Source: a virus (taxonomy: Duplodnaviria > Caudoviricetes). Taken from it: a stretch of 55,186 nt of DNA. Below the pieces are notes generated by a model. The model ran no database searches. It was not told the origin of the DNA and saw nothing but the letters and a program-made list of their open reading frames with translations. Position numbers and translations under genes: made by a program. Location: positions 1-55,186 of the IMG/VR virus record IMGVR_UViG_3300030099_006009; one strand, given 5' to 3'. This document shows positions 44,593 through 50,035 of this stretch, one piece after another; positions within the stretch are counted from its first letter, which is position 1, and each line of letters starts with the position of its first letter.

Positions 44593-44624
44593 TTAGATTA
44601 TAAAATCCCCATTTTCGATATGTA

Positions 44625-44654
44625 AATATAATAATAAAACCATATATAAGTCAA
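44625..44654 (-). promoter_or_regulatory. Sigma70-like promoter TTGACT-N18-TATATT
   Basis: Upstream of polB; shares CTTGACTTATATA with the copy at 2505-2534. Confidence 0.7.
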
Positions 44655-44661
44655 GTGTTTT

Positions 44662-45162
44662 TTAATCCATTAAAAAAATTTCTTGTGAATCTATCAATGT
44701 GTTTTGTATACTCCAATACAATCTCATTTCACTACCAGAGCCTTTATTTTGCATAACCTGTGTTGGACTTAATAAGTTATAAAAATATCCTAGACTGTCA
44801 ACTATAGAATATCTATTAGTAGTCCATCTCAAAGTGTCTACATTTACATTCATTGTATCTCTATTACCAAAGTTATCATACCATATTGCTTTAGTTCTAC
44901 TATTAGACAATAATCTGTAATGTCCACTTGAGTCATCTTCATCCCAATACATATTACTCCACCAATGCACCACTAATCTTTCTAAAGGTATGCTATCTTC
45001 GGAATGTAAATGTCCCCATATTGGTGTTGACGTAATCCATGTGTTATCTAATATTTCTATTCTAGGAACTCTTAGCATTGTAACTATGATATTTGATTTA
45101 TTTTGCTCTTCAATCCTATCATCACATCCGAATAATAATAATAAAAATAATAACTTTTTCAT
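44662..45162 (-). CDS. Putative lipoprotein
   Basis: MKKLLFLLLLFG-C lipoprotein signal. Confidence 0.72.
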   Translation of the reverse strand: MKKLLFLLLLFGCDDRIEEQNKSNIIVTMLRVPRIEILDNTWITSTPIWGHLHSEDSIPLERLVVHWWSNMYWDEDDSSGHYRLLSNSRTKAIWYDNFGNRDTMNVNVDTLRWTTNRYSIVDSLGYFYNLLSPTQVMQNKGSGSEMRLYWSIQNTLIDSQEIFLMD

Positions 45163-45177
45163 TTAAATACCTTTGAT

Positions 45178-45205
45178 AAAAAGGGGGATATATTTCAATC
45201 CCCCT
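45178..45205 (-). terminator. Rho-independent terminator after the TonB receptor
   Basis: GGGGGAT-loop-ATCCCCC followed by TTTTT on the minus strand. Confidence 0.85.
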
Positions 45206-45217
45206 AAATTTATCGTT

Positions 45218-47947
45218 TTAGAAATTAACAGAAAGTCCTAAGTTAAAATGTCTTGGTGTTCCCAAGAATACTTCGGCATTATGAGCAAGGTGAAGTTTAT
45301 CACCGTAGCCATTGTACTTACTGTTATCAACAGCATCTTGAACATATACATCGTCAAGTGCATTAAATACATGACCTGAAAGTGTCATGTTCAAACCAGC
45401 AATTTCTGGTAGTTTATAAGATAGATGTAAATCTAACTTACCATAAGATGGAGATTTCCATACTTGTGCTCTATCAGCATCACCGTCAACCTCACGAGAA
45501 TCAGGACTCCAATCAGCATAGTGATTATCATACCACCTGTAAAGACCTTGTACTCTTAATCCATCGATAGGTTTAACAGTTAATCCACCAACATAAGAAG
45601 TTTGTGGCATGTCTCCAACTTTGAGATTATTAAGAGCATATTCATACTCTGTAGAAGTCTGACCTATAATCTGACCTTCTTCATTGTATTCCATCTCTTG
45701 ATAATCACCTTTGGCGTCCCCATCAAAATACCAATCACCTATACTCACAGCTACATCTAAATCAACCATCTCGTGAAGAGCAATCTTAGATTCGACCTCT
45801 ACACCAGAGTGTGATTGATTTACACCTGTAAGATAAATGATGTCTGTATCGCCAGAATCACCTTGACCTGTGGTTACAGATTTAGTAAGGTTTCTATCAT
45901 TCCATTTGGTATTATAATAACTACCTTTGATAGCAACCGATTCACTTCTGTATTCCCCACCGATTTCAGTAGATGTAAATTTCTCATTATCAGGATCCGT
46001 TGAAACAGTTCCATCATAAGCAATTACATTATCTAAAATGGGTGGTTTTTGGACATATCCAACATTAGCAAATGCTGAAAGCCTGTCGTCAAGATTATAT
46101 CTACCACCACCTTTTACTTGGAAAGTAGTAATAGCATCGGCTTTTACAAGTTCTTTCTCAACAGAGAAATGGTCTTTGTAAGTATATCCAATGGTTGAAA
46201 TACCACCCATACCATAAAGATTAATCTTCTCTGTATCGTACTGTCCTTGTAAAAAAGCACCAAACCAATCAACTGTGGTATTGTTGTGATAAGCAATAAT
46301 ATCACCCAATCCAACTTTCTTACCGTCAGCATAATTGTCATCAGCATAGTCTACATAGTAGTCTCCACCAAGTAAGTCACGAACTTCTCTAGCATGTTCG
46401 ATACCAGCAGTTCTCCAATCAATACCAATCTGAACTTCAAGTTCGTCTGATACATCATAGTTTAACTTTGAAATCAAACCATAAGTATCTTGTCTATTGA
46501 TTGAGTTTCTAAGGATACCAGTGGAGCGGTTTTCGGTTTCTGACCATGCTGAATCTACATTAGTAGAGTTTTCTGCAATCTCGCCATCCCAATCCCATCT
46601 CCAAGGTGAACTCGCCCACCATTGATTACCTTCAACAGCAGGAAGTCTTTTTACACTTCCATAAGTTCCTGTACCACCACCAGAACCACCTGACCAATAA
46701 AGAACAGATGATAATCTAACATCTTCATTGATATCATAAAAATGATTTAGGTTTACAAGTGGTTTGTGAAAGAAGTTCTCTCTCTCGTTCAAAAGAGTAG
46801 GACTGTATCTATCCACAATGTTTGCACCATACATATACCAATATTGTTTTCCCTTATAGTCTGAACTAACGGGAGCCCAATTTTGGTTAAAGAACCTACC
46901 AGCTTCATGTTGAAACTTTTCACCTTCCGCAAAAGCAGTGACATCATATCCATCAATATCACCTGCTAACTCTTGTGAATAAGTAGCTATGTTCTGTTTG
47001 TATAGGTTCTGACCATGACGCTGTGGAGCACCAATGGCATACAACTCGAATCTTTGGTCATCACTTACCGCATAAGATGTACCAAGATAATAAGCCCAAG
47101 CGTCTGTCCATGTTCCGTCTATAAAACCATCACCGGTTTTACGAACAATCGTTCCACTTACTGCCAGTTTATCATTGATTAGACCTGAGTTATAATTCAA
47201 GGTAGATTTTAGAAATCCACCCTCACCGACTTCCTGTTTGAACTTTCCACCCTTTTCTTGGGCAGCAGGATCGGTGATTATATTCATAGTTCCACCAATA
47301 GATGGTGTTGCTAGATTTACGGCTGATAGACCTCTTTGCATCTGAATTGAAGAAGTGGCATCACCCACTCCATCCCAATTAGACCAATAAACCCATCCGT
47401 TCTCCATGTCATTTTGGGGAACACCGTTTATCATTACTGCAACGTTTCTCTGATTGAATCCACGAACATTGATACGGGCATCTCCCGCACCACCACCTTG
47501 TTGTGTAGCATAAACACTTGGTGTCGTATTAAGAATCATTGGTATGTCTTGTGAACCAAGACGAACTTCCATTTCCTCTTTACTGACATTAGTGTAAGCT
47601 ACAGGTGTTGTTTCATCTGCACGAGAAGCAAGAACTTCAAGTGCTGTGAGAGCAACAACATCAGTTTCTAAGTCGAAACTAACACTCCCAACTATGTCCC
47701 CAACCCTTACACTTTTGGTTTGGGATACATAACCGATGTATGAAGCAGTAAGATCGAAAGTACCTGTACCCGTCTCTATGACGAACTTACCCTCAGCGTC
47801 TGTTACGCCACCGAGTTCAGTACCTTCTATAACTACGTTTGCTCCAACAAGTGGTTCTTCTCCGTTTCCAACAAAACCAGTTACGGCTTGTCCAAAGACA
47901 AGACCAACTGACATCATCAGAACAGAGATAAGATTACGATAATTCAT
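45218..47947 (-). CDS. TonB-dependent receptor with N-terminal carboxypeptidase-regulatory-like domain
   Basis: Signal peptide MNYRNL..VFG; EPLVGANV..TDAEGKF..SYIGY; plug INVRGF..VMINGVP..QMQRG..GGTMNIIT; C-terminal PRHFNLGLSVNF; AGGAG RBS supports the start at 47947. Confidence 0.93.
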   Translation of the reverse strand: MNYRNLISVLMMSVGLVFGQAVTGFVGNGEEPLVGANVVIEGTELGGVTDAEGKFVIETGTGTFDLTASYIGYVSQTKSVRVGDIVGSVSFDLETDVVALTALEVLASRADETTPVAYTNVSKEEMEVRLGSQDIPMILNTTPSVYATQQGGGAGDARINVRGFNQRNVAVMINGVPQNDMENGWVYWSNWDGVGDATSSIQMQRGLSAVNLATPSIGGTMNIITDPAAQEKGGKFKQEVGEGGFLKSTLNYNSGLINDKLAVSGTIVRKTGDGFIDGTWTDAWAYYLGTSYAVSDDQRFELYAIGAPQRHGQNLYKQNIATYSQELAGDIDGYDVTAFAEGEKFQHEAGRFFNQNWAPVSSDYKGKQYWYMYGANIVDRYSPTLLNERENFFHKPLVNLNHFYDINEDVRLSSVLYWSGGSGGGTGTYGSVKRLPAVEGNQWWASSPWRWDWDGEIAENSTNVDSAWSETENRSTGILRNSINRQDTYGLISKLNYDVSDELEVQIGIDWRTAGIEHAREVRDLLGGDYYVDYADDNYADGKKVGLGDIIAYHNNTTVDWFGAFLQGQYDTEKINLYGMGGISTIGYTYKDHFSVEKELVKADAITTFQVKGGGRYNLDDRLSAFANVGYVQKPPILDNVIAYDGTVSTDPDNEKFTSTEIGGEYRSESVAIKGSYYNTKWNDRNLTKSVTTGQGDSGDTDIIYLTGVNQSHSGVEVESKIALHEMVDLDVAVSIGDWYFDGDAKGDYQEMEYNEEGQIIGQTSTEYEYALNNLKVGDMPQTSYVGGLTVKPIDGLRVQGLYRWYDNHYADWSPDSREVDGDADRAQVWKSPSYGKLDLHLSYKLPEIAGLNMTLSGHVFNALDDVYVQDAVDNSKYNGYGDKLHLAHNAEVFLGTPRHFNLGLSVNF

Positions 47948-47976
47948 AATCTGTCTCCTAGCTTTGTTATTGTTAA

Positions 47977-48012
47977 GACACATTTTTAATCACAGGTGTG
48001 TCGTCTGCCTGT
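47977..48012 (-). promoter_or_regulatory. Predicted H-type RNA pseudoknot in the TonB-receptor leader
   Basis: ACAGG-CAGAC-GACACA-CCUGU-GAUUAAAAA-UGUGUC: 5-bp and 6-bp Watson-Crick stems. Confidence 0.55.
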
Positions 48013-48022
48013 CCGCATTTCA

Positions 48023-50035
48023 TTAGTTGGCATAATCCTGGTCATCATTATCACCATGCATTGGTGGAATTTCACAACTATCGTTGTTACAGAACTTATC
48101 GACATCAGCCTCTTCATTCTTTATCACACCAAATGATAACTTACCAAGTTTTGCAACTTCTTTGTTGTAAGTTTCTTCGTCAATCGCTTCATAAGGCATT
48201 TGTGGATATGCTCCCCAATCATGTCTCGGTAATAAACTAATACCCTTTAGATGATACTGATAATAGTTTAAACAAGGAGCAATCTGATTTGCCTCTGTTT
48301 CAGGATTAAATGTAACCGTACAACTTACTTGGTTGTCAGCCCAATGTCGTTGTAAAAACGCAGCAAGTGAGAATTGTTCCCAAATGGAGAGTTCGGAAGC
48401 AGTTCTGATTCCCTCTCCTACATCTACGGGCACATCGACAACCATAGTAGTTTCTTCAGAACCAAAAGCTGGTTCTAACTTATATCCAGCTTTCTCCAAT
48501 GGTTCTAATAATTCTGAGTGTTTTGATAACCTTATTCTTCTTATGTAAAATCTTGATTCAGGATAGTGAAGTCCTGGTGTAGCACCAGCAAGTAATGATA
48601 CAGTTCCACTTGGTTTAACTGAAGTGGTTTTGATACTTCTTGGAACTGCCATCCAATCTGAATATTGTTTATCCCATTGTTGGATAACATCGTACCCATC
48701 GTTTAACCACTCCTTAAACTCATCTAATCCTCTGTTGGTAACAAACTGAGCAACACCACTCACAGAACAACCTATTCTTCTATTTCTTAACATCACTCTG
48801 TTTGTATCACTCCAATGAGTTCTACCAAGTGTTACTGTTTTGGCATATAGATAAGCATACTTAAGAGTTTTCGCATAGTCTTCGAAATCATCGTGGTTGT
48901 TAGGAAATGTTTCCACTAAACAACACAACTCGTATGACTCTAAGGTTTGTTCCAAACAAGGATTACCACCCATAGCACGATGGTCTTTATTATCTCCACC
49001 ATTTTTCATACGAGAATACTTTCTCATATTATCTAACCAAGCAAAGCCAGGCTCACCATTATCCACGATTCGTTTGGCAGCCTCTGTATAATCCATACCC
49101 AACTCTGCGAATATACTATTATTACTTGTCCATCCATATGTTTCTCTATGTGGGTTTACTTTATAATTCTTTAAATCTAAATATTCTTCTGAGTGTGAAT
49201 TACCAAAGACAATTTCAGCAGTTCTTCTTACGTTACCAGCCACAACACATTTTCCGATAAGATTCATAATGTCAACTATTGTCGTGATAGTGATTGGTTC
49301 TCCACTATTTTTTTCTAATACCTTTCTAATGTCTTCATGTACTTCTTCTAATGGTTCATGTCCACTTGATACACCACCAAAACCACTTATTGGTTCTCCT
49401 GCTGGTCTTATCTTTGTGTAATCAAACTCTATTGGAGCTTGTCCGTGAAAGTAACTTTCTAATAGTAGTCTTAAAGATTCAACCCAACCCTCACGAGTAT
49501 CAGGTATTTCGTATACTTGTTCTTCTCTATTTTCTTGTATACCTTTAACTACTATCTCCCCAGCACCTTTTGTATCAAACCCCACACCGACACCTAACAT
49601 ACTCGCATCCATAAGGAAACAGAAAGGTTTAGCATAGTCTTCTTTTAGTGTTTTGGTTGATACGAAGGCACAATTGTTTAGGGCGGCATATAAACCCTTT
49701 TTCTCTGTGATAGGTGTTCCCATAGCCCACAGACCGCGTCCAGGCGGCAAAAACTTCATATTGAAAATTCGGTCATACATATCTTGAGCCGACTTTTGAG
49801 CTTGCCACGCATTCCACCCTAATTGATGTGATTCAATCCAATTCATTTGCATATTGTAAGTCCCCTCTACAACACGCTGTACGGTTTCCCACCATCTTTC
49901 ATTTTTACCATTATCTTTGATTCTTGAGTAAGTTCTCATATAAACTAATTCACCCAAACCATTGAAACCAAACGGAGCTTTTTTTCTTTTGTATTTGCTT
50001 ATAAAGTTCTCCGATAAAACAAACTTTTTACTCAT
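48023..50035 (-). CDS. nrdJ: Class II (adenosylcobalamin-dependent) ribonucleotide reductase, monomeric type
   Basis: PPGRGLW, LNNC, GNVRRTA, NPCLEQ, TSVKPSGT, C-terminal FCNNDSC; no beta subunit nearby. Confidence 0.93.
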   Translation of the reverse strand: MSKKFVLSENFISKYKRKKAPFGFNGLGELVYMRTYSRIKDNGKNERWWETVQRVVEGTYNMQMNWIESHQLGWNAWQAQKSAQDMYDRIFNMKFLPPGRGLWAMGTPITEKKGLYAALNNCAFVSTKTLKEDYAKPFCFLMDASMLGVGVGFDTKGAGEIVVKGIQENREEQVYEIPDTREGWVESLRLLLESYFHGQAPIEFDYTKIRPAGEPISGFGGVSSGHEPLEEVHEDIRKVLEKNSGEPITITTIVDIMNLIGKCVVAGNVRRTAEIVFGNSHSEEYLDLKNYKVNPHRETYGWTSNNSIFAELGMDYTEAAKRIVDNGEPGFAWLDNMRKYSRMKNGGDNKDHRAMGGNPCLEQTLESYELCCLVETFPNNHDDFEDYAKTLKYAYLYAKTVTLGRTHWSDTNRVMLRNRRIGCSVSGVAQFVTNRGLDEFKEWLNDGYDVIQQWDKQYSDWMAVPRSIKTTSVKPSGTVSLLAGATPGLHYPESRFYIRRIRLSKHSELLEPLEKAGYKLEPAFGSEETTMVVDVPVDVGEGIRTASELSIWEQFSLAAFLQRHWADNQVSCTVTFNPETEANQIAPCLNYYQYHLKGISLLPRHDWGAYPQMPYEAIDEETYNKEVAKLGKLSFGVIKNEEADVDKFCNNDSCEIPPMHGDNDDQDYAN

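Follow-up and report, generated by a model that had tools for sequence, protein, structure and literature searches.

A conserved and covarying H-type pseudoknot in the leader of a TonB-dependent-receptor-like gene of marine T4-like phages

Immediately upstream of a gene for a TonB-dependent-receptor-like protein, a phage genome fragment carries a compact pseudoknot of the H type, whose two stems are conserved and covary in related phages. This knot is very probably a functional cis element, and it constitutes a strongly supported structured RNA outside Rfam 15, found in a large and widespread group of marine T4-like phages. It probably sets the amount of importer that the phage makes. The window referred to throughout is the whole stretch of DNA that was analysed, 55,186 nucleotides of the IMG/VR record IMGVR_UViG_3300030099_006009, a viral record that is about 30% complete.

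Read from the sequence, the 36-base pseudoknot occupies positions 48012 to 47977 of the minus strand, where it had originally been predicted, and 11 of its 11 pairs are of the Watson-Crick type. The 5' strand of S1 (ACAGG, 48008-48012) pairs over five positions with the 3' strand (CCTGT, 47992-47996), which abuts S2 and leaves an L2 of 0 nt; the 5' strand of S2 (GACACA, 47997-48002) pairs over six with TGTGTC at 47977-47982. L1 (CAGAC, 5 nt) lies at 48003-48007 and the A-rich L3 (GATTAAAAA, 9 nt) at 47983-47991, the last A of L3 forming a conserved AUG with the S2 3' strand. The distances given in the original prediction also hold: S1 begins 10 nt after the nrdJ stop codon (TAA, 48025-48023), and an unstructured, A/C-rich spacer of 17 nt (47960-47976) separates S2 from the Shine-Dalgarno sequence (SD) of the receptor gene (AGGAGA, 47959-47954), which is conserved in the leader alignment along with the receptor start codon (ATG, 47947-47945), all on the minus strand. 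The knot is thus contained within the 76-nt spacer between the nrdJ stop and the receptor start. The surrounding patch is indeed enriched in GC (0.45 at the knot against 0.33 for the whole window), and the free energy of each stem alone amounts to only -4.4 to -4.7 kcal/mol.

The downstream gene (45218-47947, minus strand) encodes a protein of 909 aa with CarbopepD_reg_2 and Plug domains, and the upstream gene, nrdJ (48023-50035, minus strand), encodes an adenosylcobalamin-dependent ribonucleoside-triphosphate reductase whose TIGR02505 score, 370.9 bits, exceeds the cut-off of 340. The two are likely to belong to the same transcription unit, whose end is marked by an intrinsic-terminator-like hairpin with a T-run after the receptor gene (45182-45205, minus strand). 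Every gene of the window lies on the minus strand, and since these include genes for a T4 gp43-type polymerase, a DnaB-like helicase, a methylase and gp32, the window can be assigned to a distant T4-like phage. A DNA search of a phage database with the window returned no match, and a gut-phage contig whose receptor is 30% identical is devoid of the motif.

The strongest evidence for the knot comes from related phages. Querying IMG/VR with the receptor and nrdJ gave 160 loci (the best 80 of at least 320 relatives and the best 80 of at least 599), and the motif is found in 143 of the 144 loci having a receptor start, the sole exception retaining just 3 nt upstream. In an alignment (A1) of 80 distinct 52-nt versions and the window, 81 sequences altogether, pairing is kept in 98.4% of the 891 pair cells and both-sided, double compensatory changes are seen at six of the 11 pairs, three in each stem and 36 cells overall; none of 500 shuffles attained any of the observed pairing or covariation values. 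When the 3' partners are slid by 1-3 columns, pairing falls to 18-57%, and the G.U intermediates (4 + 1 cells) are compatible with the sense strand only. On a maximum-likelihood tree of the first 900 nt of the receptor gene (75 rows, six rows shorter than 600 nt having been omitted), four covarying pairs require at least 14, 9, 3 and 3 state changes, counts that tree error or recombination could inflate; as the tree demands repeated changes at these pairs, the compensations have recurred. Conservation and covariation in homologous leaders, which had been proposed as the check on the fold, therefore speak clearly in its favour. The flanks on both sides of the knot have diverged freely in the relatives.

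The distribution of the changes within the knot is itself informative. Three of the five S1 pairs show compensatory double changes and its two junction-side G are invariant; three of the six S2 pairs covary, and those on the junction side are invariant or nearly so. L1 begins invariantly with C and A, followed by G in at least 90% of the sequences, and the 3' A-run of L3, its final four or five A, hardly changes if at all, the 5' part of this loop being variable in length (9 nt in the window, 7 in most relatives and 4 in one). All the invariant and near-invariant positions cluster around the helix junction, and from these junction, L1 and L3 bases we infer a putative triple-helix core. The invariance of the loops and of the junction favours a role in specific recognition or in tertiary packing over a generic stable hairpin. 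The stretch between S2 and the start codon, on the other side, varies among the relatives in both sequence and length (24-37 nt, median 30), with the SD sitting 10-22 nt beyond S2.

Judged by the sequence of the window alone, the knot is not significant. With loop limits similar to those of the knot, the window contains 15 instances of a 5 + 6 Watson-Crick H-type pattern, where 30 dinucleotide shuffles give 8.4 ± 3.8, and with at least six G-C pairs, the G-C thresholds having been set after seeing the case, one instance against 0.13 ± 0.34. The nested minimum free energy of the leader is likewise ordinary (z = -0.69, 55 of 200 shuffles being equally stable). It is because the knot is conserved and covaries in related phages that it rises above chance.

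The knot belongs to the receptor gene rather than to the gap in which it was noticed. It had been described as lying between nrdJ and the TonB receptor, and the position is right; what does not stand is the notion of a generic spacer element, since the knot is part of the receptor leader. The two genes are adjacent in 142 of the 160 loci (143 when L001, the copy of the window itself, is counted), and in the nine loci with an insert of 0.6-1.1 kb after nrdJ the knot is directly 5' of the receptor gene in all nine, so that its distance from the nrdJ stop ranges from about 3 to more than 1000 nt. A pattern scan of IMG/VR for the motif gave at least 120 stretches, representing 80 loci; among the matches listed, a receptor start comes no more than 80 nt after the motif in 72 of the 80, in eight the motif is too near the end of the locus to judge, and none stands in another context. 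Thirteen loci had nrdJ without a receptor match. Four of these, with at least 2 kb downstream (L087, L095, L101 and L159), lack both gene and knot, nrdJ leading directly to a terminator or to the gp43 leader; in L101, nrdJ is immediately followed by a terminator like the one that follows the receptor gene in the window. Three others contain a knot variant and a receptor-like start that the filters had overlooked, four end within about 170 nt past nrdJ (three of them showing the knot and one its first bases), and two have a different gene next. As the knot tracks the receptor both in the loci with inserts and in those without receptor, knot and receptor form one cassette between nrdJ and the operon terminator. 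In L121 (6010-6150) and L135 (4694-4830), the gene following nrdJ has an overlapping SD and its product begins MHKLEYLWLDG, which we take to resemble N-termini of the glutamine-synthetase type; the receptor slot may here be occupied by a further gene of host origin.

A covariance model built from the motif (R1) and run with filters off finds a single match in the window, at 61.2 bits with the next best at 9.9 bits, and one true match in each of five contigs of 100-165 kb. One copy per genome rules out a dispersed repeat or a general phage promoter element.

The original prediction could match the knot to no known RNA class, and the models of Rfam 15 agree at three scales: there were 0 matches in the whole window at the gathering score and 0 on the 61-nt stretch, and at E ≤ 10 the 601 nt around the site gave nothing relevant, the snoRNA and S4-leader matches being noise (E 0.8-7). 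Run alone at E ≤ 10, the preQ1-I model (RF00522) likewise found nothing at 47977-48012, and its four matches elsewhere in the window reach at most 14.1 bits against a gathering score of 39 bits; SAM-II, SAM-V, preQ1-II, guanidine-III, fluoride and all the other Rfam 15 models are unmatched at the site. Full-text searching, with most subscription journals outside its coverage, found no paper describing the motif and none on a TonB receptor in T4-like SAR406 phages. As a real, conserved knot in a position typical of cis-regulatory RNA, the element nevertheless remains the cis-regulatory candidate that it had been taken for.

Several other kinds of element were considered for the same stretch and set aside. 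There is no terminator-like site at the element, and it follows the receptor, not nrdJ, which rejects an intrinsic terminator of nrdJ. In the window the ATG in S2 shares the reading frame of the receptor gene, and across the 80 versions it falls in frames 0, 1 and 2 in 21, 33 and 26 cases, so that an upstream ORF or an N-terminal extension was discarded. A stimulator of frameshifting or readthrough, which would call for a constant spacing of about 5-9 nt from a slippery site or stop codon within an extended reading frame, was rejected as well, the distance to the stop ranging from about 3 nt to over 1 kb and the downstream frames being unconserved. Folding the 81 leaders from the motif to +30 with RNAalifold left S2 as the only conserved nested helix; there is no conserved anti-SD or other alternative helix, and the pairing of UGUCU with the AGACA after the SD is specific to the window and lost in relatives.

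Some further features of the leader were noted. In the window, the start codon lies within a possible hairpin of eight pairs at 47924-47953 (minus strand), formed by AGAUUAUG with CGUAAUCU around a 6-nt loop; relatives retain just 3-5 of the eight pairs, and it is probably not a conserved feature. In 17 of the 81 leaders (for example L049, L054 and L123; columns 47-75 of alignment A3) the spacer between knot and SD holds a palindrome, TTC-R-T...A-Y-GAA, in which an A/T to G/C change on one arm is matched on the other; the window is without this palindrome, which might form an additional weak hairpin or serve as an operator. A 9-nt word, TTCACATAC, stands 2-14 nt 5' of the knot in many relatives (for example L019:1470-1500 and L050:3924-3940), its 8-nt core TCACATAC being present in 29 of 84 distinct spacers. 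The word is absent from the leader of the window and not enriched in the window, and a pairing with the 3' strand of S2 was rejected, there being no covariation when S2 changes. A similar word occurs in the chromosomal locus L172 at about -86 from the receptor ATG, and CACATA[CA]-like words are seen in 10 of 64 cellular orthologue leaders; TTCACATAC may be a remnant of a host leader or promoter.

The receptor gene points to a bacterial donor. Its closest cellular relatives, at 49-72% identity, are in MAGs of Marinimicrobia/SAR406 (Neomarinimicrobiota, Fidelibacterota), and the two Marinimicrobia orthologues inspected have ordinary chromosomal neighbours, RecO, rhomboid and peptidase S49 among them; uncultured SAR406/Marinimicrobia are likely to be the hosts of the knot-bearing phages. 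Across 80 cellular-orthologue loci R1 found the motif in L169 only, a contig of a MAG labelled Flavobacteriales that carries nrdJ, the knot and the receptor gene. With nrdJ upstream of knot and receptor, L169 is best read as a phage fragment binned into the MAG. Besides L169, 64 of the 65 cellular leaders with at least 161 nt upstream were scored, and by regex and a generic pseudoknot scan the knot is absent from all 64 of these chromosomal leaders; a match of 13.8 bits in L238 proved to be a word of 12 nt, lying 490 nt ahead of the gene, and was dismissed. The 151 sampled genomes of the Marinimicrobia phylum gave no true match, nine matches at 20-22 bits being at chance level, and none of the eight inspected makes both stems. 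Within the genomes searched, the knot is a phage innovation with no host leader carried along, which would mean that a phage builds its own post-transcriptional control for a host-derived gene, the leader of the host being replaced and not copied. The leader of L171 (labelled Winogradskyella) is nearly identical to that of the Marinimicrobia locus L172, which suggests a binning or labelling problem.

How the knot acts can be framed by analogy with the leader of gene 32 in T4, T2 and RB69. The preferred reading, held tentatively and at a little short of an even chance, is that the knot would serve as an operator like that leader, as a 5' stabiliser, or as both. The knot would have arisen with or after the insertion of a Marinimicrobia-derived receptor behind nrdJ and before the operon terminator; its 5 + 6 coaxially stacked pairs would be folded constitutively at or near the 5' end of a processed receptor message, which they may shield from 5'-end-dependent decay. 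A trans-acting protein might recognise the knot and, bound about 25-60 nt upstream of the AUG beside the unstructured spacer, set the access of ribosomes. On its 3' side the knot ends at -25 to -38 relative to the receptor start, which we take to be the upstream edge of the 30S contact region. Such a protein partner, the processing, the triplex and the direction of control are what we infer.

Contigs of RNA libraries bear on the processing step. The region is represented, at no less than 85% identity, by contigs of four marine metatranscriptome runs from three studies; two of them bridge nrdJ, knot and receptor gene (47673-48092 and 47962-48125), and one contig from the nrdJ side stops at 48019 and one from the receptor side at 48015. 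Both stops fall within 7 nt 5' of S1 and come from different studies, which hints, at most weakly, that the genes are transcribed together and the transcript is then cut immediately 5' of the knot, bearing in mind that contig ends cannot show RNA ends and that RNA libraries may hold DNA; uncovered parts and depth differences in these contigs carry no weight.

The likeness to gene 32 is one of architecture only. Both are leaders of T4-like phages in which a coaxial H-type knot would stand towards the 5' side and an A-rich, unstructured stretch leads from it to an SD outside the knot; the covarying knot found here is indeed on the 5' side of its leader, and the variable spacer behind it shows no conserved helix. 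The stable gene 32 mRNA of T4 starts, after processing, at the knot, to which the two contigs ending just 5' of the knot here may form a weak parallel. The differences are equally clear. The knot is not upstream of gene 32, the loop lengths differ (L1 has 5 nt here), and the downstream gene is receptor-like; as its product is an outer-membrane receptor and not a single-strand-binding protein, autoregulation does not come into question. It counts against the gene-32-like reading that the controlled gene encodes no RNA-binding protein and that the phages' own gp32 leaders differ. The gp32 gene, present in five of the five contigs some 6-7 kb upstream in the same gene block, is preceded by a plain hairpin and not by the receptor-leader pseudoknot. 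In the 100 nt upstream of four gp32 genes (L378-L381), a promoter-like TATATT, a hairpin of variable sequence and an A/U-rich spacer come before the SD. A Pfam search for RegA (PF01818) matched 0 of the five contigs, a silence shared by the control search. If a protein does bind the knot, the logic of gene-32-type operators would reach beyond autoregulation.

The knot might instead be a new mini-riboswitch, in which the junctional core binds a small molecule and its folding alters the translation or decay of the receptor mRNA, the ligand possibly being linked to the receptor's import cargo or to nucleotide metabolism. We regard this as rather unlikely, although much about the element fits: its size and H-type topology are those of known mini-riboswitches, the unpaired bases of L1 and L3 and the junction pairs are invariant while the stems covary, it stands once per genome in the 5' leader of a transporter-type gene, and the failure of every known family to match it would then mean a new class. 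Like preQ1-I (RF00522), the knot has about 34-36 nt, the H-type fold, a first stem of five pairs and an A-rich last loop that would sit in the minor groove of the first stem. In preQ1-I, however, the C that pairs with the ligand lies in the loop between the P2 5' and P1 3' strands, and the SD or terminator strand lies in or beside the P2 3' strand, whereas here an L2 of 0 leaves no junction loop of that type, S2 has six pairs, the SD is away from S2 by 17 nt in the window, and there is no queuosine gene. SAM-II, SAM-V, guanidine-III and preQ1-II are H-type knots too, with conserved loop bases that form triples with a stem, in leaders of transport or metabolic genes, but the 3' strand of their knots holds or abuts the SD, which is not so here. 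The variable spacer, the lack of an alternative helix and the distant SD give no support to a switch that sequesters the SD as preQ1-I or SAM-II do; with the SD 10-22 nt past S2, no anti-SD pairing and no terminator, no expression platform is apparent. Phage riboswitches are usually inherited along with the host gene, and this element is absent from the 64 cellular orthologue leaders and the 151 donor-phylum genomes; the missing platform and the phage-only distribution together tell somewhat against a riboswitch. A phage-evolved riboswitch of about 34-36 nt, among the smallest, that tunes an acquired importer to a host metabolite without SD sequestration is doubtful to the same degree, and its platform could be decay control or access to a standby site, for example. 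Should a ligand bind, a riboswitch class would be added.

It is also conceivable, though unlikely, that the knot is a passive barrier or insulator without a specific partner, which halts 5'-to-3' decay or the scanning of RNase E from nrdJ or, in a variant of the idea, prevents sequence further upstream from pairing with the ribosome-binding region of the receptor. An intercistronic position right before an unstructured spacer and a strong SD, arrival with the gene in a pre-existing operon and the low stability of the single stems, which makes the whole knot necessary for stability, suit such a role, and the contig breaks just 5' of the knot agree with it weakly. Against it stand the loop and junction bases, invariant although the receptor N-termini of knot-bearing phages are merely 34-50% identical: a barrier would tolerate sequence change, many hairpins could serve, and for a simple stabiliser such sequence conservation would be needless. 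That no RNA structure is involved at all, and that the pattern reflects a DNA promoter or operator, a coding feature or recent common descent, is very improbable. The ATG conserved in S2 and the word TTCACATAC upstream in many relatives would suit such a view, but the compensations preserve pairing and recur on the tree, the G.U cells suit one strand, the frames of the S2 ATG are mixed, the flanks have diverged freely and the leader of the window does without the word; covariation, mixed frames and repeated events on the tree largely refute it. For explanations other than the gene-32-like, riboswitch and passive-barrier readings taken together we see only a small chance.

In form, the knot also recalls the frameshift knots of luteoviruses such as beet western yellows virus, with which it shares about 5 + 6 pairs, an A-rich minor-groove loop and conserved junction bases suggestive of base triples; unlike them it is intergenic, lacks a slippery site and lies at a variable distance from the stop. 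At 36 nt, the knot is easy to test.

Finally, the segment beyond the receptor terminator has features of its own. Between the terminator and gp43 the window holds an ORF of 166 aa (44662-45162, minus strand) that has no match in Pfam, NCBIfam or PHROG and is missing together with the receptor gene in L087 and L095. The gp43 leader (window 44593-44661, minus strand) is strongly conserved in comparison with the receptor-less L087, L095 and L159, where a promoter-like TTGAC..17 nt..TATATT stands ahead of it, and this conserved leader might be an operator of gp43 comparable to the one in T4.
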